A DNA stretch of 64,000 nucleotides, taken from the NCBI GenBank assembly GCA_034423135.1, contig DAOUJC010000006.1:65670-129669 (forward strand), written 5' to 3'. Positions 24,059 through 49,620 of this stretch are shown piece after piece. Below the pieces are notes generated by a model. That model did not search any database and was not told the DNA's origin. It saw only the letters and a list, made by a program, of their open reading frames with translations. The number at the start of each line of letters is the position of its first letter. Positions within the stretch are counted from its first letter, which is position 1. The stretch is from Dehalococcoidia bacterium. Lineage in GTDB: Bacteria > Chloroflexota > Dehalococcoidia > Lucifugimonadales > UBA2985. The translations under genes and the position numbers were made by a program.

Positions 24059-24195
24059 GGAAGCACGAGCGGGGAGCGCACAGCTTACGAATCTTACATT
24101 TTGCAGCGGGTACTACCACAACCCGGCTCACTGCGTTACAATGAACGGCGGAAGCGAACCAGGGGCACACATCCGGTGTCCCCAAGGAGGTGGAG

Positions 24196-24693
24196 ATGAC
24201 GACCTTCAGCAATACGGGTTCAGGTGCAGTATACGCGCCGCGAGGAGCGCAGAAGGCCCTTGAACAGGAGGTCATCGACCGCTTCCTTGCGAGGGCTTCG
24301 GCGCTGGGCATGACGCCCAAGCCGCTGAACATCAAGCTGCTCGGCGGGGGCCTGATGGGCCTCTGGGAGACGGCCGGCACCTATCGAGTGTCGTGGCGAG
24401 AGGCGGTGAGTGTGGGCATCCCGGGTGTCGCAAGCATCTCGATGCGCCTGCCCCGCAGCGGCGTGTTCACGAAGTACAACGCGGACAAGGTGCTGATGAG
24501 CGTGGAGGCGGAGGCCTACCGGCTGCCCTTGTCCACCCTCAACGAGATCGAGGAGACGGCGGTGCTGGCCGAGGAGGTCGACCCCATCCTGGCGGTGAGA
24601 GTGGCCGGTCGCTGGTTCGAGGTGTACCGCTGGCTCAAGCGTCCCTACGTGCTCTCGGACGACGAGGCGCGTCACATGGCTGCGATCAGGTAG
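24196..24693 (+). CDS. hypothetical protein
   Basis: AAGGAGG lies 5-6 nt upstream of ATG 24196, third positions are GC-rich, and a terminator hairpin follows. No family recognised. Confidence 0.55.
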   Translation: MTTFSNTGSGAVYAPRGAQKALEQEVIDRFLARASALGMTPKPLNIKLLGGGLMGLWETAGTYRVSWREAVSVGIPGVASISMRLPRSGVFTKYNADKVLMSVEAEAYRLPLSTLNEIEETAVLAEEVDPILAVRVAGRWFEVYRWLKRPYVLSDDEARHMAAIR

Positions 24694-24720: not shown

Positions 24721-24746
24721 AGAGGGCCGGCGCCAGCCGGCCCTCT
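24721..24746 (+). terminator. intrinsic-terminator-like hairpin
   Basis: AGAGGGCCGGC-GCCA-GCCGGCCCTCT forms an 11-bp stem and is followed by CTTGTTGTG. Confidence 0.55.
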
Positions 24747-24908
24747 CTTGTTGTGGGTGAGGTGGTGGCCCTTCCTCGCAATTGCAAGTGCAGTTAGGTT
24801 TCAACCGTCTGCCATCTTTCACCGACTGCTCTGACGCTCTGTTTGAAAGGAACTTCTCATTTCCTCTGCAAGCTTCTTACCCTTTTCGGCGTCGACTCTA
24901 GCTTACAT

Positions 24909-25208
24909 TTAATAAGACGGTGCCTCCTCGGCGTTCGTCCATCCCAGAACATATATCGGTCTCTGAGCAGGCCCGTGGTCACTGTCAATGCTATCTGAAT
25001 AGATGTGCAATAATATCCATCCTTCAGCGAGATACTCATTGACACCCATCTCTTGTCCGCTTCTGTAGTGGATGACGTCGCCACCAATCTCCATCACTCG
25101 TTGAACATTATGGATGCTCTTACCGGCCATATATCCTTTCCCTCCATATCGTGCAGCAACTTTCGTGGTCGTTGCTTTTCGCTTGCTGCCTATTAGAATC
25201 CTAGCCAC
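24909..25208 (-). CDS. small hypothetical protein (third gene of the MTase-HNH islet)
   Basis: GTG 25208 overlaps the upstream stop by 16 nt. An alternative ATG at 25130 is preceded by GGAGGGAAAGGA. The C-terminal part (...VNEYLAEGWILLHIYSD...PIYVLGW) faintly resembles DUF4177-type small proteins. Low GC. Confidence 0.45.
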   Translation of the reverse strand: MARILIGSKRKATTTKVAARYGGKGYMAGKSIHNVQRVMEIGGDVIHYRSGQEMGVNEYLAEGWILLHIYSDSIDSDHGPAQRPIYVLGWTNAEEAPSY

Positions 25209-25459
25209 TGCTGTAGCCGTGCTTTTCCCATCGGAGTTAGTTCAACGAGATGTAACTTCGGTACACTATCAAAGTCCACCGTTTCATGTTCGGAAATGTA
25301 GCGCGGTGCAGTCATAGTTATGCCCTGCGGCAATACGCGTTCAGCCAAGCCTTCGCTTACGCAGTACTCTATCTCCGCGTTCGTTGCATCCGATTGGTCT
25401 ACGGCCCCGGCTCGAATTCTAAGCAAGATTTCCAGCAATCTCTTGTCAGGCACATTCAT
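25193..25459 (-). CDS. small hypothetical protein (second gene of the MTase-HNH islet), possibly winged-helix-like
   Basis: Starts 4 nt after the MTase-HNH stop. MNVPDKRLLEILLRIRAG...LVELTPMGKARLQQWL looks wHTH-like by eye only. Confidence 0.5.
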   Translation of the reverse strand: MNVPDKRLLEILLRIRAGAVDQSDATNAEIEYCVSEGLAERVLPQGITMTAPRYISEHETVDFDSVPKLHLVELTPMGKARLQQWLGF

Positions 25460-25463
25460 TGCG

Positions 25464-26837
25464 CTACCGCCTTCTCCGGCGGGAGGCCCGCGCCCGGCCG
25501 TGCTGAATGTTCGCTTCGTTCTCCTGAGACAGGTACCTGAATCTCCGGTTGTGGTCCTGCAAGCCCGTCAAGGTCATCCTGTCACGCTTTTCCCTGTTGC
25601 ACGGGGGGCAAAGTAGAGTGAGGTTGTCGTAGGCGTCGCTCCCGCCGTCGGACTTTGGCCTGATGTGGTCAACCTCCAGCACTCTGACGTCAAAGCCGTA
25701 GTAACGCCCGCAACCCTGGCAATACGGTCCAATGTGCCCCAGCAGCTTCTCGTGCTGGGAGCGAGGTGGAGGGTAGCGTTTCGCGCGCGCCGTGGGCGTT
25801 TGCAGATACAATACGGCTTCCTCCCCGCCGTCCGTCCGCACTGGTGGTGTTGTGGAGTAGTGGACGGAGCCGAAGGTAATGAGATGGGTACTGTACCTAT
25901 CGTCGTCTTCGTACGGAACAGCCAGCCCCTCGCTCTCAAGTCGGTCTAGCACCATCTGGTATGCCTTATCCCATATATCCATGCCTACCCATTGCCTGCC
26001 TAGCCTTTCGGCGGCGACCGGGGTGGTTGCACATCCGCAAAAAGGGTCAAGGACCATGTCGCCCGGGTTGCTACTGGCCCGTATAATTCGCTCGTACAAG
26101 GCTAATGGCTTCTGAGTAGGGTACCCTGTCTTCTCTGTAGAGAAGCTCTTGATCATTATGGAGTCCAATACGTCTGCCGATGAGCAGTTCCAAGTATCCT
26201 CCATAGGTATGCCCTTGCCCGTCGGCCGCTTGCCGTCGCGTCTGACATAATCAGCTGTGTAGGGAATGTATTCTTTGTTGAATTGCTTTATGCCACTGGC
26301 CGTCTTAACATAGTAGAGAAGTGTCTCATGGTTCCTAATCCATCCGCGCTTCTGACTCTTGAAGCCGCTAATCCAGCCGATGCGCCATACGATTTCGTTC
26401 CTGAAGTTGGCCTTGCCAAACACGGCGTCCATCAACGCCTTAACCCAGGCGTGAGCCGTGTGGTCAATGTGGAGGTAGATGGAGCCGGTGGGTTTGAGTA
26501 CGCGGCGCATCTCTAGTAGGCGTACCCCCAGCCAGCAGATGAAGGCTCCCATATCATAGCCGTAGACATTCTTGGCGGCGTTGATTACGTGCCAAACCTC
26601 TGGGCTGTCCCGCTGAATCTTGATGAGCCAGTCGTCGTGAATGTCGTCTCGCCAACTCCATCGGTCCTGGAAGCTGGAGCCGGCAGCAAGAGAGTCAGGC
26701 GTGGCGTGGAAGTCCCTGCTCTTGTTGAATGGCGGGTCGGTGGCGATAAGATCAACGGTCTCGCTGTTCATCCCGCGCAAGAAGTCCAAGTTATCGCCGT
26801 GATAGAGGGAGCGGTTAGGAAAATTGGGTTCAGACAT
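25464..26837 (-). CDS. beta-class (N4/N6) DNA methyltransferase fused to a C-terminal HNH nuclease domain
   Basis: Motif IV DLIATDPPF near the N-terminus, motif I VLDPFCGCATTPVAAERLGR later. C-terminal CQGCG...EVDHIRPKSDGGSDAYDNLTLLCPPCN (HNH with two CxxC pairs) and an Arg-rich tail. Hand-sampled lines inside the gene are about 42% GC. Confidence 0.85.
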   Translation of the reverse strand: MSEPNFPNRSLYHGDNLDFLRGMNSETVDLIATDPPFNKSRDFHATPDSLAAGSSFQDRWSWRDDIHDDWLIKIQRDSPEVWHVINAAKNVYGYDMGAFICWLGVRLLEMRRVLKPTGSIYLHIDHTAHAWVKALMDAVFGKANFRNEIVWRIGWISGFKSQKRGWIRNHETLLYYVKTASGIKQFNKEYIPYTADYVRRDGKRPTGKGIPMEDTWNCSSADVLDSIMIKSFSTEKTGYPTQKPLALYERIIRASSNPGDMVLDPFCGCATTPVAAERLGRQWVGMDIWDKAYQMVLDRLESEGLAVPYEDDDRYSTHLITFGSVHYSTTPPVRTDGGEEAVLYLQTPTARAKRYPPPRSQHEKLLGHIGPYCQGCGRYYGFDVRVLEVDHIRPKSDGGSDAYDNLTLLCPPCNREKRDRMTLTGLQDHNRRFRYLSQENEANIQHGRARASRRRRR

Positions 26838-26945
26838 GATGTTGATTGAATGCGTAGATTAGTGCGCCATGATCAAAGGCTACATATGTTCTAACACGTT
26901 GGCGTAGCAATGTCAACGCCGGTATAAGCAAATTACCTTTTGGAC

Positions 26946-37475: not shown

Positions 37476-38984
37476 GTGCGTAGGTCTCCAGCGACTTTGT
37501 ATTACTCCCTTATGAATGCGAACGAGCGACAGCAACCGCTTCCCGGCTTAACTCCCCGACTTTCGTACCCCTTTGGAACTGAGCACGCCCGCTCCTCGGG
37601 CGACCCATCGCCAAACGGTGGTGGCAACGCTGAGCGCCTTGCCCTATACCGGAGATTTGAGGATCGGCTCTCCACTGGCTCATTCCTGACTCGCAAAGTG
37701 GTGTCATACCAGGGAAACCGACGCGCACCGGGGTTTCGCTGGATGAAGTACAAGGAGGCATTCTCCGCAGCCTTGGTGGGCCACCTCATAGATGACGTCA
37801 AGCCCACCTCTGTCCTAGACCCATTCGCAGGCATCGGCACTACGCCCCTCTTGGCCGCCGGCCGTGGCCTATCAGCCACCGGCATCGAGATAATGCCCAT
37901 AGGGGTGTTGACTGGAAACGCGATTGCCCTCGCTGCCAACGGCCTGAGCTCGGCTGACTTTAGATGTGCTGCGTCTGCTATTCTTGACCACGGCCTGTCG
38001 GGCGCCGAACCTGGGCCAGAGTACGCGTTTCCCCATGTGCGAATTACGGCGTCGGCGTTCCCTCCTGAAACCGAGATAGAGATCGCGAAAGCGCGGGAGT
38101 TCCTGAATGCAGTGGACGACTCCGAAACCCGCGCCATACTCGACTTCGCCTGCATGAGCGTTCTGGAGGAAGCGAGCTACACTCGCAAGGACGGACAGTA
38201 CCTGCGATGGGACTACAGGTCTGGGCGGCCCCTGAGAGCACGCGTTCACAAAGGGCCGGTCCTGACTTTCGCAGCCGCTCTCGAGGCCCGCTTGGGCGAG
38301 ATGTCAGAGGATCTGGAACCATTGAAGCGGAGGTACGGTGGCGGCCGTCCGGAACTCGTCGAGGGCTCCAGCCTGGACCAACTAAGACGGCTGCCGGACG
38401 GCTCTTTCGATCTGGTTGTGACGTCGCCGCCTTACGCCAATCGCTACGACTACACGAGGACATACGCCTTAGAGCTTGCGTGGCTCGGATACAACGATCA
38501 AGCGTTCGGCATCCTTCGCCAGAGGTTGCTGTCCGCCACCGTTGAGAACAGGTCCAAGATGGGCTACCTGCAGAAACAGTACGGCGACTCGCCGCTACTA
38601 GCAGCCGCGATAGAAATGTACGAGGGTCAGGGCGCGCTGAACGAAGCACTCTCCATTCTCAGGGAACACGCTAGTGAGTTGAGCAACCCTCACGTGATAC
38701 GCTTGCTGGAAGGGTACTTCCTCGAAATGGCCTTGGTTGTTGCCGAACTGGGGCGCATTGTAGCGCCGGGAGGCGCCGTGTTCATGGTCAACGACAACGT
38801 GCAGTATCATGGCGAAGAGGTGCCGGTGGACCTGATCTTATCTGACTTCGCCGAGCAATCTGGATTCACTTGCGAGCACATCTGGGCGCTGCCGCGAGGA
38901 AAGGGGAACTCCAGCCAACAAATGGGGCGCTTTGGACGTCGAGAGCTTCGGAAGTGCGTGTACAAGTGGGTACGGTGTCAATGA
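37476..38984 (+). CDS. DNA methyltransferase with motif I preceding an SPPY motif IV (N4-C or N6-A)
   Basis: VLDPFAGIGTTPLLAAGRG (AdoMet motif I) lies about 190 aa upstream of DLVVTSPPYANRYDY. Alternative ATG start at 37512. Hand-sampled GC is lower, about 55%. Confidence 0.7.
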   Translation: MRRSPATLYYSLMNANERQQPLPGLTPRLSYPFGTEHARSSGDPSPNGGGNAERLALYRRFEDRLSTGSFLTRKVVSYQGNRRAPGFRWMKYKEAFSAALVGHLIDDVKPTSVLDPFAGIGTTPLLAAGRGLSATGIEIMPIGVLTGNAIALAANGLSSADFRCAASAILDHGLSGAEPGPEYAFPHVRITASAFPPETEIEIAKAREFLNAVDDSETRAILDFACMSVLEEASYTRKDGQYLRWDYRSGRPLRARVHKGPVLTFAAALEARLGEMSEDLEPLKRRYGGGRPELVEGSSLDQLRRLPDGSFDLVVTSPPYANRYDYTRTYALELAWLGYNDQAFGILRQRLLSATVENRSKMGYLQKQYGDSPLLAAAIEMYEGQGALNEALSILREHASELSNPHVIRLLEGYFLEMALVVAELGRIVAPGGAVFMVNDNVQYHGEEVPVDLILSDFAEQSGFTCEHIWALPRGKGNSSQQMGRFGRRELRKCVYKWVRCQ

Positions 38985-39925
38985 ACAAGCAGGAAGACGC
39001 AAAGAGGCGTTCGTCAGTCATCGCCCAGCGAATCCAAGAGAGGACGGATATCGCTCTACGCCAGATCATCGATGAATTCTCTGATGAGTTGACGTTCACA
39101 CCTCTGGACGGACTGATGATAAGCCAGGCAGCGTGGGCTCACGTTGCCGCCTCCGGCTTCAACCCCAAACTCGTATTTGCCCATCCCGACTTGCTAAGGA
39201 AACACCCGCGCATCTCCACGTACTATCGCGGTATTGCTTTGCTTCCGCGGAAGCGCGTCAGTGAATTGGCATCTCCAGTCGACTCCTGGGAGGAGGGCAG
39301 ACGCGCAAGCGAGATCCAGGAAGCGCAGGCCCTGCGCGTAGCGCGACTGTACAATGCCGTCATTTCGTCCATTATCGAGGGCTCCACGGGATGGACGCTG
39401 GAGAACGGTTACAGGAACATCATCGCCAACATGGGCATCGGTTTGGACGGGACCGTGCGCAATCTAATCGGCCAGGACGCGGAGCAGCTCATCAAGACCA
39501 GAATCAGGGATTGGCTTGACAGCCGACAGCTTATAGCAGGTCGGAACGAAGACCAGACCAGGTTCGAGCTGCCCAGCGGCTACGCGATGCGCTTTGGATC
39601 AGAGCCGGACATCGAGTTTAGCCGGATTGTCTCCGGTGAAGCTAGGGTTGTTGCCACGATAGAGATTAAGGGAGGGAAGGATCGCGCCGGCGCGCTGGAG
39701 AGACTGGGAGCTGTCCAGAAGAGCTTTCAGGCAACTCCCCCCGGTTGCATGAACATTCTCATCGCAGGTGTCGTAACAAGAGAAATGGAGAGCCGTCTTG
39801 CTGAGATGGGTGTTGGCCGCGTATTCATGCTTGACGAACTCGCCAACGATGGTGATTCCTGGCTAGGCTTCCTGAACGAGGTCTTCCACTACACGGTGCG
39901 AATCACGCAGGCGGTCATCACTTAG
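38981..39925 (+). CDS. candidate type II restriction endonuclease (PD-(D/E)xK)
   Basis: ATG 38981 overlaps the methyltransferase TGA (ATGA). GSEPDIEF...VATIEIKGG fits a PD...ExK catalytic core. The family could be XcyI/Cfr9I-like, but that was not verified. Confidence 0.55.
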   Translation: MNKQEDAKRRSSVIAQRIQERTDIALRQIIDEFSDELTFTPLDGLMISQAAWAHVAASGFNPKLVFAHPDLLRKHPRISTYYRGIALLPRKRVSELASPVDSWEEGRRASEIQEAQALRVARLYNAVISSIIEGSTGWTLENGYRNIIANMGIGLDGTVRNLIGQDAEQLIKTRIRDWLDSRQLIAGRNEDQTRFELPSGYAMRFGSEPDIEFSRIVSGEARVVATIEIKGGKDRAGALERLGAVQKSFQATPPGCMNILIAGVVTREMESRLAEMGVGRVFMLDELANDGDSWLGFLNEVFHYTVRITQAVIT

Positions 39926-45672: not shown

Positions 45673-46119
45673 ATGACAAAGCGACTACAGGTAATGCTGA
45701 ACCATGAGGAATACGGCGAGATAGAGACCTACGCCCGGGGCAGTAGAATGACCGTAGCGGAGTGGGTACGGCAAGCACTGCGCAGAGCCAGACAGGGCGC
45801 AGCTGGAAGCTCAGTGAGGGAAAGTTCGGCCACATACTTTACTCAGAGAGGATTAGTATACTATACTACTGCCATGACAAAGCGACTGCAAGTGCTGCTG
45901 GATGAGGAAGAACTCGGAGAGATTCAGGACGTGGCACGCGGGCAACGCCTGACTGTCGCCGAGTGGGTGCGCCAGTCCCTGCGTCAGGCCCGGCGGGAAT
46001 TGCCCGGCGCTCCGGACGTAAAGCTACGCGCCATCGCCGAGGCATATCGCCACTCCTATCCAACCGGTGACATAGGCGCCATGCTGGATGAGATTGAAGC
46101 CGGCCGGCAGCTGCAGTGA
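45673..46119 (+). CDS. vapB: tandem-duplicated ribbon-helix-helix antitoxin (VapB-VapB fusion); a second in-frame start at 45874 would give a conventional 81-aa VapB
   Basis: MTKRLQVMLNHEEYGEIETYARGSRMTVAEWVRQALRRAR is repeated as MTKRLQVLLDEEELGEIQDVARGQRLTVAEWVRQSLRQAR 67 aa later. Confidence 0.65.
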   Translation: MTKRLQVMLNHEEYGEIETYARGSRMTVAEWVRQALRRARQGAAGSSVRESSATYFTQRGLVYYTTAMTKRLQVLLDEEELGEIQDVARGQRLTVAEWVRQSLRQARRELPGAPDVKLRAIAEAYRHSYPTGDIGAMLDEIEAGRQLQ

Positions 46120-46511
46120 TCTTCATAGACTCCAACATACCCATGTACCTTGTTGGCGCACCTCACGCCAACAAAGACCGCACCCTGGCGCTTCTCACCA
46201 AGCTGATTGGGGACGGAGAACGTCTGGTCACAAGCGTGGAGGTGTACCAGGAGATAATTCACAGGTACATTGGGCTCAAGCGTCCGGATGCAATTGACCC
46301 AGCGTTCCGAGCGCTCGACGACGTAGCCGACGAAGTGCTGTCGTTCGGTATGCCTGAGGTGCGCGCCGCCAGGGAGCTGATTCGAGCGGGTGGCGGACTG
46401 TCCTCGCGTGACGCGCTCCACGTGGCCGTGATGCGCAGCGCCGGCACCAACCGCATTCTAAGCTTCGACGCGGGATTCGACGAGTGCCCGGGCATAGAGC
46501 GCCTGGCGTAA
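46116..46511 (+). CDS. vapC: PIN-domain toxin VapC
   Basis: The GTG start overlaps the vapB stop (GTGA). MIFIDSNIPMYLVG...SRDALHVAVM carries acidic PIN residues. Confidence 0.8.
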   Translation: MIFIDSNIPMYLVGAPHANKDRTLALLTKLIGDGERLVTSVEVYQEIIHRYIGLKRPDAIDPAFRALDDVADEVLSFGMPEVRAARELIRAGGGLSSRDALHVAVMRSAGTNRILSFDAGFDECPGIERLA

Positions 46512-48051: not shown

Positions 48052-49338
48052 CTATCGTCTGCGTCGCCTCACCCGGCGTTGAGCTACCCGCCCAATGCGT
48101 AGGTTACCTTCGTTCTTCATGTAACCATTGGTGCGATTGCGGTCCTGAAGGGCCGAGAGCGTGTAGTAGTCTCGCTTCTCTTTGTTGCACGGAGGACAAA
48201 GCAGTGTGAGGTTATCGTAGGCGTTGCTTCCACCGTCGGATCGTGGGCGAATGTGGTCTACCTCCAGTACACGAGCGTCAAAAGTGTAGTCGGCGCCACA
48301 GCCCTGGCACAGCGGACCTATGTCCTCTACCAGCTTCCCGTGCTGGGTGCGCGGTGCCGGGTGGCGTTCCCGCGCACGTCCCAGGGGCGTCCGAAACACC
48401 ACGGCCGCCATTTCTCCAGCATCTGTCCTAGCGGGCGGTGTTGTGGAGAAGAGAACTTGAGGGTTGGCATCAACGAGCAACTGCTTGTTGGCCTCTAGCC
48501 GACTCCGTACTAAGTCAAGAGCACCCTTCCAGATGTCTATTCCGACCCACTTACGCCCAAGCCGTTCAGCCGCGATGCAAGTTGTTGCACAGCCCGCAAA
48601 TGGATCAAGAACCATGTCACCTGGGTTGCTGCTTACTTGGATGAGTCGTTCATAAAGGGCTAGGGGCTTCTGAGTAGGGTAGCCCGCGGCCTTCTTTTCT
48701 GGATCTGTAGGGCTGGTAATCTTCGGTACGTCTGTCCACCAGTCATTGATTGGCGTCCCTTCATTCCGCAGGCCTTGGTCAAAATACTTGCCCTTGATAG
48801 CTGTTCGGCCACGCTGCAGTGTACCGTCCGAGTAGTCGCGGTAGATCGTGTTAAACACGCACTCCGCCGACTTGGTATAGCGGAGCAGAGTGTCGTGCTT
48901 CCTGGGGAAGTCATGTCTAGGAACACCGCCACCTGCGTAGCACCACACTATTTCGTTCCTGAAATTCTCCCGCCCAAATATAGCGTCTAGGAGGCACTTC
49001 ACCCATGCGTGCGCAGTGTGGTCAATGTGAAGGTACAGGCTTCCATTGTCTGCAAGAACACGATGCATTTCCAGCAGCCGGACGCCCAGCCAACAGAGGA
49101 AGGCGCCCATGGCCTCACTGTGGACAGCCTTGGCGGCAGATATGACCTGCCAGACCTCCGGCTCGTCACGCTGTAGAGTTTCCAGCCACTCATCATGTAC
49201 ATCGTCCCGCCAGCGCCAGCGGTCCTGAAAGCTCGCTCCTGAGGCCAAACTGTCCGGCGTGGCGTGGAAGTCACGGCTCTTGTTGAAGGGCGGGTCAGTA
49301 GCGATGAGATCGACGGTCCCACTGTTCATGCCCCGCAA
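48052..49338 (-). CDS. second beta-class DNA methyltransferase-HNH fusion (paralog of 25464..26837), N-terminally truncated by an upstream in-frame TAA
   Basis: DLIATDPPF, GYPTQKPLALYER, VLDPFAGCATT and EVDHIRPRSDGGSNAYDNLTLLCPPCN. Homology continues in frame upstream to GTG 49395 but is interrupted by TAA at 49375-49377. Confidence 0.7.
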   Translation of the reverse strand: MRGMNSGTVDLIATDPPFNKSRDFHATPDSLASGASFQDRWRWRDDVHDEWLETLQRDEPEVWQVISAAKAVHSEAMGAFLCWLGVRLLEMHRVLADNGSLYLHIDHTAHAWVKCLLDAIFGRENFRNEIVWCYAGGGVPRHDFPRKHDTLLRYTKSAECVFNTIYRDYSDGTLQRGRTAIKGKYFDQGLRNEGTPINDWWTDVPKITSPTDPEKKAAGYPTQKPLALYERLIQVSSNPGDMVLDPFAGCATTCIAAERLGRKWVGIDIWKGALDLVRSRLEANKQLLVDANPQVLFSTTPPARTDAGEMAAVVFRTPLGRARERHPAPRTQHGKLVEDIGPLCQGCGADYTFDARVLEVDHIRPRSDGGSNAYDNLTLLCPPCNKEKRDYYTLSALQDRNRTNGYMKNEGNLRIGRVAQRRVRRRRR

Positions 49339-49620
49339 GAAGTCGAGGTTGTCTCCGTGAAAGAGTGTGCGGTTTTAGAAGTTGCGCTGGGCCACGGTGA
49401 TCCTCCTGGGCGTTAGGTGAAGCGCGTCACGCCTAGCTTGCCAAGGCAATCTACAACGGGTAGAATTGTAGCACACTGTGCCAGCGGCGCACTCAAATTC
49501 TGTGTGTGCAACAGTGGACTCGCCACCGCACACTTGGAATACAATGGGTGCAGCCATCTCCCCCAAGCCAATCGCGGTTGGGAGAACGGCGAATTCCGCC
49601 ACTTGGCGGTCGTTCACAAT

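Follow-up and report, generated by a model that had tools for sequence, protein, structure and literature searches.

The window, i.e., the whole stretch of 64,000 nucleotides that was analysed, contains a low-GC islet in the convergent spacer between trpB and its neighbour g0. Three minus-strand genes lie within this islet: gene 1, which encodes a DNA methyltransferase (MTase) fused to an HNH nuclease domain, and two small genes, g2 and g3. The ORF coordinates and the spacing of the three genes in the first-pass annotation were correct. The features of the locus are listed below, with the evidence for each in brackets.

24721..24746, unstranded: bidirectional terminator hairpin, common to g0 and the islet operon (11-bp stem)
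24760..26944, unstranded: inserted low-GC islet in the convergent trpB|g0 spacer (empty-site blastn, GC)
24909..25130, minus strand: g3, 73-aa beta-rich protein, most likely optional cargo (homolog alignment, dN/dS)
25193..25459, minus strand: g2, 88 aa, family without a match, most likely optional cargo (clusters, dN/dS)
25464..26837, minus strand: gene 1, MTase-HNH fusion, 457 aa (Pfam and conserved architecture)
25467..25562, minus strand: basic tail ending RRRRR, aa 426-457 (Arg-rich end in homologs)
25563..25802, minus strand: HNH nuclease domain, aa 346-425, CxxC...DH...N...CxxCN (conserved residues)
25938..26129, minus strand: constant C-terminal MTase part, aa 237-300, with GYPTQKP and the AdoMet motif DPFCGCATT (column conservation 0.85)
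26130..26390, minus strand: hypervariable target-recognition domain (TRD), aa ~150-236, TRD type 2 (TRD variability)
26409..26837, minus strand: constant N-terminal MTase part, aa 1-143, with DPPF at aa 34-37 (mean column conservation 0.78)
26888..26916, minus strand: likely own promoter of gene 1, TTGACA (26911-26916), 17 nt, TAGAAC (26888-26893), with TGT before TAGAAC (conservation upstream)

Insertion of the islet

The islet had been described as low in GC and horizontally acquired, and both descriptions hold. In 300-nt windows, GC content is 0.48-0.59 in the islet versus 0.65-0.71 in the flanks, and the acquisition is directly evident from the closest relatives, from which the islet is absent. 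These relatives are represented by L096 and L100, the closest species with an empty site, the former with amino acid identities to the window of 96% for g0, 95% for trpB and 94% for thrB. In the empty sites ~100 nt, terminator included, separate g0 from the trpB stop, and blastn homology to the window ends at ~24759 and resumes at 26945 (the trpB stop), therefore the inserted segment was placed at ~24760-26944. The terminator already recognised at 24721-24746 is a genuine hairpin which is also present in L096 and L100; it is core sequence, outside the insertion.

Direct or inverted repeats were looked for in the islet flanks and none were found. The islet lacks a transposase and terminal repeats and, as had been observed before, encodes neither a separate restriction enzyme nor an integrase or phage structural protein. 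An 11-nt likeness at 26849 to the inverted repeat of L007 does not extend and has no partner, and was treated as chance. The islet more probably came in by recombination via the conserved flanking genes, trpB and g0, than by IS1595.

Upstream of their same-locus fusion copies, L082, L083 and L091 keep the block TTGACA-N17-TGTTAGAACATATGTAG amid divergent sequence, and L081 has a weaker TTGACA...TAGAAC match. A consensus scan missed this likely promoter, since its hexamer ends in a base other than T. A possible operator is the palindrome ACATATGT, which overlaps the conserved promoter.

Gene 1 and its family

Gene 1 matches PF01555 (N6_N4_Mtase) over residues 28-295 (E 5e-42; 144.9 bits against a cut-off of 26.7) and PF01844 (HNH) over residues 373-420 (E 5e-13; 49.5 bits against a cut-off of 21.4), with no match to PF02384 or PF07669 in the Pfam scan. 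Its motif order is that of the beta class, i.e., DPPF (34-37), a variable segment and then DPFCGCATT (264-272; FCGCATT 266-272), and with the Pfam matches this bears out the beta-class MTase-HNH fusion first proposed; the predicted active sites are intact. The best solved-structure matches to residues ~100-300 are beta-class MTases (E 6e-18 to 2e-14), while the nearest solved or curated relatives of the HNH are the HNH domains of Cas9/IscB and McrA. Judging from DPPF and the best-matching N6A enzymes, the methylated base is probably N6-adenine. The TRD segment is the part of gene 1 with the lowest GC, and most of the homologs listed share the Arg-rich end of the basic tail.

The MTase-HNH architecture is common to all of the best 120 database clusters and occurs in more than 120 in all, and the family is large, nearly all of it from Chloroflexota MAGs with several paralogs per genome. 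Residue conservation was counted over 199 distinct members: DPPF is found in 198-199, and F266, G268, T271 and T272 in 198. The HNH catalytic residues D390, H391, N405 and N414 are kept in 198, 197, 197 and 196 members, respectively, and the zinc cysteines Cys373/376/410/413 in 198/197/197/193. Both active sites are kept in 193-199 of the 199, therefore both predicted activities appear to be under selection.

Comparison of family members shows that the predicted central recognition domain has been replaced wholesale. The 84 proteins compared fall into at least 23 TRD types, where a type was defined by ≥45% identity over ≥80% length (looser thresholds merged all into one group), and backbone identity is equal whether the TRD types match (0.68) or not (0.66). 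In L039 the TRDs of tandem paralogs are unrelated, with 98% identity over the rest of the protein. Among the five proteins compared from the same trpB locus (the window's own and P0002-P0005) the conserved domains are 85-100% identical, the basic tail 66-84% and the TRD 12-21%; the N-terminal MTase part of gene 1 is 87-89% identical to that of the same-locus copies. Within genomes, a TRD type is shared by 1 of 30 paralog pairs versus 3.8 expected. No silent cassette, invertase or inverted-repeat shufflon was seen near the window gene.

The neighbours of the fusion in 80 related loci are housekeeping genes, with no conserved partner. L082 holds a related MTase chassis (38-46% identity) with a C-terminal Mrr_cat instead of HNH, which suggests that the C-terminal module serves to cleave DNA. 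In L007, L077 and L105 the fusion lies with an IS1595 (ISXO2-like) transposase inside perfect 19-24-nt inverted repeats, and in L090 an integrase and ParA are near it. In L085-87 the fusion is internally deleted and dead.

Two further methylase loci, neither of which appeared in the first-pass annotation, lie in the window.

37476..39925, plus strand: classical type II restriction-modification (R-M) pair, MTase and XcyI-like restriction endonuclease (REase) (10.6 kb from gene 1)
48052..49395, minus strand: second MTase-HNH paralog with a different TRD and a TAA stop at codon 7, 49375-49377 (tblastn)

The second paralog is 58% identical to gene 1 and 21 kb away from it. It starts with AGGAGG-GTG (translation VAQRNF*NRTLFHGDN) and lies between hisS and tRNA-Arg, with no small ORFs downstream. 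The nonsense codon in this copy and the deletion in L085-87 are decay typical of defence genes.

Proposed function of the fusion

The reading that we favour, at somewhat better than even confidence, is that gene 1 encodes a self-contained single-polypeptide R-M enzyme. The beta-class MTase core would read a DNA motif via the TRD, which sits between motifs IV-VIII and X-I, and would methylate host DNA at that motif, while the C-terminal Cys4-zinc HNH would nick or cut DNA carrying the same motif unmethylated. We infer both that the nuclease is aimed at the unmethylated target and that methylation protects the host. Recombination in the highly conserved flanking coding sequence would replace the TRD cassette whole and so confer a new specificity, therefore an arsenal of paralogs with different specificities would be possible in one genome. 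Gene 1 would spread as a solitary cassette, here in the trpB|g0 hotspot, and elsewhere the fusion is an IS1595 passenger or lies on integrative elements. In the first-pass annotation a single-chain R-M enzyme had been coupled to controller or accessory proteins; the single-chain idea is strengthened, whereas neither the controller and accessory part nor the modification-dependent system offered with it has gained support.

As in type IIG enzymes, restriction and modification domains are in one ORF with no separate REase gene, but the architecture of gene 1 is not that of type IIG, since the nuclease is a C-terminal HNH and the methylase is a PF01555 domain with an internal TRD. Known single-chain R-M enzymes (type IIG) combine an N-terminal PD-(D/E)xK nuclease with a gamma-class MTase, and in PADLOC only generic MTase models match gene 1, both of which count against the R-M reading. 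Because one HNH site cuts just a single strand, two sites or a dimer would be required to break both strands, which is a further point against it. The model leaves the escape of newly replicated DNA from cleavage unaccounted for, and TRD diversity alone fits equally well with solitary methylases that counter other restriction systems.

It is also conceivable, although in our view unlikely, that the fusion is an orphan methylase whose HNH serves its own spread or recombination. By cutting naive DNA it would promote gene conversion of the cassette, the TRD or the 3' cargo, and the whole would behave as a methylation-marked homing or addiction element. Such an element could explain why many paralogs per genome occupy unrelated housekeeping sites, why their constant regions are homogenised (up to 98% in L039) and why the site is filled or empty among closely related genomes. 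Furthermore, the window and L084 are homologous from a point within the 3' end of the fusion gene onwards into g2-g3, which suggests that cargo is exchanged by recombination in the gene. However, no conserved target sequence or junction was seen at the insertion sites, and IS1595 with its inverted repeats provides a separate mobility route. For homing there is no need to keep dozens of TRD types distinct in each genome, and the module that replaces HNH on the related chassis, Mrr_cat, is typical of restriction nucleases.

More doubtful still is an HNH that is inactive or a mere zinc-finger DNA clamp, which would make the protein an ordinary MTase that protects, e.g., against other restriction systems. 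Other R-M systems abound in the genome context (the MTase with its XcyI-like REase at a distance of 10.6 kb and, in L082, the MTase-Mrr fusion), and a purely protective set of methylases would also gain from multiple specificities, but 196-198 of 199 members keep, beyond the zinc cysteines, the catalytic D-H, N and N residues, which a structural role would not call for.

The small genes g2 and g3

The start of g2 lies 4 nt past the stop of gene 1. For g3, either an overlap of 16 nt with g2 or an ATG had been left open as the start; the ATG at 25130, preceded by a GGAGGG ribosome-binding site, is where the homologs start, therefore the 73-aa form (24909-25130) is the real one, rather than the overlapping form within the longer ORF of 99 aa (24909-25208, minus strand). 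Database homologs of g2 form three 90%-identity clusters only, the window's own and two at 77-81% identity, and uncalled copies are present in L085-87, whereas g3 has 15 clusters at 42-80% identity and lacks a C-terminal helix present in its closest homologs. Both are real genes, because their dN/dS values are 0.10-0.13 (g2) and 0.24 (g3).

Scans of g2 and g3 with Pfam, NCBIfam, PADLOC and PHROGs gave no usable family match, and for g2 no helix-turn-helix (HTH) family was matched in Pfam, PADLOC or NCBIfam. The structural model of g2 was too poor for a fold search (pLDDT 44), and the AF2 model of g3 (pLDDT 79) had no fold match in the PDB at E<0.5. The guess that g3 belongs to DUF4177 (PF13783) was not upheld, as the window protein had no match at E≤10 and one of 15 homologs had a match, at best faint, at E 0.03.

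Neither g2 nor g3 is found in the 80 related fusion loci (0/80). At the trpB locus itself, the fusion copies in L081, L082 and L083 come without either gene and the one in L091 with g3 alone. The two genes occur together in L084 and L085-87, downstream of the fusion or what is left of it, and in L085-87 they persist beside the dead fusion. On its own, g3 adjoins or is near a fusion in L090, L091 and L092, and it is also found with no fusion nearby, behind AAA+S8-peptidase genes and close to a type IIG enzyme. The small ORFs that accompany g3 elsewhere are mutually unrelated, therefore there is no recurrent two-gene unit or clear toxin-antitoxin pairing. From this distribution, g2 and g3 are most likely separate optional cargo at the 3' end of some copies, not subunits. 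Functional coupling of the fusion to the two small proteins, as first proposed, is not supported, given their absence from the 80 loci, their partial or complete absence at the same locus and the occurrence of g3 without a fusion; conservation of the fusion does not extend to the two small ORFs, an outcome which the first-pass annotation had itself named as refuting its proposal.

We therefore regard as very improbable a three-component restriction-like or defence system of gene 1, g2 as a winged-HTH controller and g3 as an accessory protein, despite the tight same-orientation packing, the 4-nt gap between gene 1 and g2, the ribosome-binding site before g3, the recurrence of g2-g3 in L084 and L085-87 and of g3 alone in L090, L091 and L092, and the palindrome ACATATGT over the conserved promoter as a candidate operator. 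The same promoter block is still present in L081, L082 and L083, which lack both small genes, and in L091, which lacks g2; the second paralog in the window has neither; g2-g3 are under purifying selection beside a dead fusion; and g3 occurs after AAA+S8-peptidase genes and in a mobile element without a fusion. Moreover, g2 does not qualify as a C protein, having no HTH match and being absent from the 80 loci and from L081, L082, L083 and L091.

The weakest alternative, a phage or prophage HNH that aids terminase in DNA packaging and is fused to a phage methylase, can be set aside almost with certainty, for although the MTase domain has many phage relatives (30-43% identity) and a single IMG/VR contig bears a relative of the fusion, none of 50,697 phage records has a match covering ≥80% of the gene 1 protein, no PHROGs family spans both domains, that sole viral locus is IS1595 cargo beside tail (tape-measure) genes and not terminase, and the neighbours in the 80 genome loci are housekeeping genes. 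Prophage association next to terminase had been named beforehand as grounds for refutation, and the phage, plasmid and IMG/VR data gave no such refutation; among 72,556 plasmids there was no full-length match to gene 1, so a plasmid origin is unsupported.

Comparison with known systems

The self-contained R-M enzyme that we favour resembles the type IIG/IIC enzymes (MmeI, BpuSI, Eco57I family) in having nuclease, MTase and target recognition in one chain without a partner, in shifting specificity via an altered or swapped recognition domain, and in occurring as solitary genes in variable regions. However, those enzymes are ~900-1300 aa long, with an N-terminal PD-(D/E)xK, a gamma-class N6_Mtase/Eco57I-type methylase and a C-terminal TRD, whereas the gene 1 family, at ~440-550 aa, has a beta-class PF01555 domain with an internal TRD followed by a C-terminal HNH, for which cleavage is only predicted. 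The beta-class type II and orphan methylases M.RsrI, M.MboIIA, CcrM and DpnA, the solved-structure matches mentioned above, have the same order as gene 1, with DPPx first, the TRD in the middle and the AdoMet motif last, but they have no nuclease domain, and the NCBIfam scores of gene 1 are far under the equivalog cut-offs (PRK11524, 103 versus 292; CcrM, 80 versus 830).

A beta-beta-alpha-metal fold with Cys4 zinc is shared with several HNH nucleases (type II KpnI/MnlI/Hpy99I; type IV McrA, TagI, wH-HNH; Cas9/IscB), in which, however, the HNH is joined to a DNA- or modification-reading domain or an RNA-guided scaffold and never to a cognate methylase. Type IV enzymes cut modified DNA, so that joining one to a methylase would be self-destructive. 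As in type I hsdS and in type IIG/III shuffling, a conserved frame surrounds a recognition module exchanged by recombination, but in the fusion family this module is inside the catalytic methylase itself. IS1595 transposons with passengers are seen for L007, L077 and L105, from which the window islet differs in having no transposase or terminal repeats.

We put forward tentatively, at a little under even confidence, that the beta-MTase-HNH fusions are a previously uncharacterised, compact class of single-chain R-M enzymes of ~450-530 aa. Its members would exchange an internal TRD, would form non-overlapping arsenals of multiple paralogs in Chloroflexota (many apparently host-associated), would spread by IS1595 and through hotspots, and would have an Mrr-type sister form. 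We did not find this fusion chassis described in the literature searched, and the publications searched contained no description of a beta-class MTase-HNH fusion restriction enzyme.

If the fusion restricts DNA, it would represent a new single-chain R-M architecture of beta-class methylase, internal recognition module and C-terminal HNH, and the dozens of natural recognition cassettes on a near-constant frame would be a source for new specificities and for retargetable nickases or cutters. Sponge-associated bacteria are reported to be enriched in R-M functions (PMC5099237, PMC5649159), and a restricting fusion family would be a concrete gene family behind this enrichment. Even if it does not restrict DNA, there remains a large family whose methylase is accompanied by a conserved nuclease active site, for a reason as yet unexplained.

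The trpB|g0 spacer in other species

In other species the trpB|g0 spacer holds an HD/dGTPase-like protein and a DarG-C-like protein (L097, L101 and L103), PDC-S11 (E 1e-63) and HicAB (L102), or a protein without a known family and HicB (L104). In L098 it holds an 88-aa ORF, which was compared with g2 and is unrelated. Scans of g0 itself with Pfam, NCBIfam, PADLOC and PHROGs gave nothing usable. The spacer is a hotspot for defence and toxin-antitoxin cargo, being empty in close relatives and holding other defence or toxin-antitoxin genes in others, and the fact that close genomes show it empty, filled or decayed makes it a clear natural case of a defence hotspot.

Gene content of the islet

The islet between trpB and the conserved gene g0 (~24760-26944) holds three genes:

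25464-26837, minus strand: gene 1, the MTase-HNH fusion (457 aa)
25193-25459, minus strand: g2 (88 aa), starting 4 nt past the gene 1 stop
24909-25130, minus strand: g3 (73 aa), ATG at 25130
24190-24693, plus strand: g0 (167 aa), neighbouring the islet

The first-pass annotation had described a low-GC, minus-strand islet of three genes; its ORFs, spacing and composition were every one found, confirming the observation as a whole. GC content is 0.48-0.59 in the islet versus 0.65-0.71 in both flanks. A GGAGGG ribosome-binding site precedes the ATG at 25130 and, as all g3 homologs in the alignment start at this codon, the 73-aa protein is the real form of g3.

The gene 1 protein is a member of PF01555 (N6_N4_Mtase; E 5e-42, residues 28-295) and PF01844 (HNH; E 5e-13, residues 373-420), and because DPPF lies ahead of the AdoMet motif it has the beta-class order. 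Among solved structures, the methylase part is closest to CcrM, M.MboIIA, M.RsrI and DpnA; the nuclease part is most closely related to the HNH domains of Cas9, IscB and McrA. No family was found for g2, g3 or g0 in Pfam, NCBIfam or PADLOC, nor for g2 and g3 in PHROGs. Upstream of the fusion, the window (26881-26916, minus strand) and the trpB-locus copies at L082, L083 and L091 (L-numbers denote other genome or contig loci) have in common a promoter-like block, TTGACA-N17-TGTTAGAACATATGTAG. Inside this block, directly downstream of the -10 region, lies the palindrome ACATATGT, which could be an operator.

Spread and diversification of the fusion family

The two-domain architecture is kept in the best 120 of at least 8000 candidate database clusters (53-81% identity). 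Relatives are encoded on 190 stretches of the genome collection, nearly all from Chloroflexota MAGs (Dehalococcoidia, Phototrophicaceae, Aggregatilineales). A genome usually has more than one paralog, often several, and OZ241910.1 has at least five. The window itself has a second:

48052-49395, minus strand: MTase-HNH paralog, 58% identical, with a different target-recognition domain (TRD), between hisS and tRNA-Arg

Its AGGAGG ribosome-binding site is good and its start codon is GTG, yet codon 7 is TAA (49375-49377); the copy is possibly a pseudogene, or translation may resume at an ATG further on. Some database proteins of 339-546 aa (P0163, P0164, P0167, P0168, P0173) carry the same HNH module N-terminally, followed by 250-440 residues; these could represent further fusions or result from erroneous gene calls.

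Segments of the fusion and their column conservation, from an alignment of 84 relatives
Residues 1-143: constant N-terminal part, 0.78
Residues ~150-236 (64-148 aa elsewhere): hypervariable middle, the TRD, 0.42 (aa 144-236)
Residues 237-300: constant methylase C part, 0.85
Residues 301-345: linker, 0.44
Residues 346-425: HNH, 0.60
Residues 426-457: Arg-rich tail, 0.50

At least 23 unrelated TRD types occur among the 84 relatives, and backbone identity is equal whether the type is the same (0.68) or different (0.66). Tandem paralogs at L039 are 98% identical outside the TRD and differ in TRD type, while the trpB-locus copies P0002-P0005 match the window protein at 85-100% in the conserved domains, 66-84% in the basic tail and 12-21% in the TRD. 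Only one of 30 within-genome paralog pairs has a TRD type in common (expected, 3.8).

The nuclease end also varies. A 594-aa protein (L082, 362-2146, minus strand), whose gene is 4 kb away from the fusion at the trpB locus, shares this type of methylase chassis (38-46% identity across the constant parts) and has Mrr_cat/NA-iREase1 in place of HNH at its C-terminus, which suggests that nuclease modules are swapped on one methylase frame.

The trpB|g0 hotspot and mobility

Species-representative genomes were searched with g0 to survey the trpB|g0 spacer. The thrB-g0 ... trpB arrangement is the same in nine Dehalococcoidia/Chloroflexota MAGs; g0 is 62-96% identical among related Dehalococcoidia and in every case lies between thrB and the hotspot. 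At the empty sites L096 and L100 the gap from g0 to the trpB stop is only ~100 nt and contains the same terminator hairpin, L096 being 96%, 95% and 94% identical to the window at the amino acid level in g0, trpB and thrB, respectively. Homology between the window and these sites ends at ~24759 and resumes at 26945, which sets the limits of the insertion; a search of its flanks found no target duplication or terminal repeat. Other species fill the spacer with low-GC cargo of other kinds:

L097 (5619-7461), L101, L103: 430-aa HD-domain dGTPase-like protein and 180-194-aa protein resembling the DarG C-terminal part
L102: PDC-S11 (PADLOC E 1e-63), HicA/HicB and aspartyl protease
L104: 657-aa protein of no named family and HicB
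L098: single 88-aa ORF

The first of these pairs corresponds to no named system in PADLOC and probably has a defence or toxin-antitoxin role. The same spacer harbours the genes most closely related to gene 1 (L081, L082 (=L099), L083, L091). As L081, with an intact fusion, and L086/L087, with a dead one, are contigs of one sample, the locus seems to differ between closely related genomes there.

The fusion is immediately preceded by an ISXO2-like IS1595 transposase in L007, L015, L028, L077 and the IMG/VR contig L105, and perfect inverted repeats of 19-24 nt surround transposase and fusion in L077 (4947-7829), L105 (4943-7735) and L007 (5043-7597). These hallmarks were looked for in the window islet and are absent.

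Interpretation of the fusion

On balance, we favour the reading that the fusion is a self-contained restriction-modification (R-M) enzyme whose specificity is altered by cassette replacement. Both active sites are conserved, with methylase motifs, HNH catalytic residues and zinc ligands kept in 193-199 of 199 distinct members, and the recognition module is strongly diversified and distinct among paralogs. This reading is further favoured because the fusion has no partner gene (clustering all ORFs of 81 loci gave no conserved neighbour, the flanks being transporters, dehydrogenases and further housekeeping genes), resides in a defence/toxin-antitoxin hotspot, is carried by transposons, has interchangeable nuclease modules and often decays. 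The comparative evidence is strong, and beyond conservation of the nuclease domain we infer the steps towards an R-M enzyme.

The fusion could also be a solitary methylase whose HNH domain promotes its own recombination or spread; we regard this as rather unlikely. Unlikelier still is a methylase with a non-catalytic HNH, since the catalytic residues are retained. In its proposed working, the fusion comes closest to the type IIG/IIC single-chain enzymes, yet it falls outside their architectural definition, differing in nuclease fold, methylase class and domain order. The passages searched in a 2025 review of R-M biology, in a 2017 classification of His-Me finger nucleases and in a recent classification of methyltransferases make no mention of a beta-MTase-HNH fusion.

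The small genes and the phage context

The first-pass annotation had joined g2 and g3 to gene 1 in a three-gene module, an interpretation borne out only in part. The small genes are real, and dN/dS values of 0.10-0.13 (g2) and 0.24 (g3) indicate purifying selection; their partnership with the fusion does not hold, since tblastn detects neither of them in 80 related loci or in the trpB-locus copies L081, L082 and L083. A three-gene system is accordingly improbable, although some loci do combine the parts: L091 has the fusion then g3 without g2, and L084 has another fusion (41% identical) followed by a 92-aa ORF, g2 and g3, with DNA homology to the window setting in within the final ~90 nt of the fusion gene. 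In L085-87 (L085, 5287-6330) an internal deletion has left only the first ~30 and last ~105 codons of the fusion at the trpB|g0 site, with g2 and g3 intact after it. Relatives of g3 are found in further settings: in L090 close to a fusion within an integrase/ParA element, in L092 following a fusion at a different site, in L093-95 and L111 behind AAA+S8-peptidase genes without a fusion, and in L088/89 as part of a fusion-free element that also holds HicA, a transposase, a KAP NTPase and an Eco57I-like enzyme. We read g2 and g3 as optional passengers of defence or mobile regions that often attach themselves to the conserved 3' ends of fusion genes. The g3 protein is predicted, with moderate confidence, to form a small beta-rich domain, and its model has no match in the PDB.

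One g3 setting recurs as a unit (L093, 2533-6507; L111, 64-4437) of AAA ATPase, 882-aa S8 peptidase (Y4kK_N), g3 homolog and 101-aa ORF. Its context is mobile: the related contig L094 has a resolvase, and L111 a Uma2-family gene.

A phage packaging enzyme can be practically dismissed: L105 is a prophage fragment, but there the transposase and fusion adjoin tape-measure genes in the tail-gene region and not terminase, and 50,697 phage records and 72,556 plasmids contain no full-length match.

Other systems in the window

A slightly low-GC stretch at 37476-39925 (plus strand) encodes a classical type II R-M pair: the gene for a 502-aa methylase (weak PF01555 match) overlaps that for a 351-aa restriction endonuclease of the XcyI family (E 3e-20). 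Beside hisS, a 131-aa ORF (46116-46511, plus strand) resembles, by eye, a PIN/VapC-type toxin (MIFIDSNIPMYLVG...).
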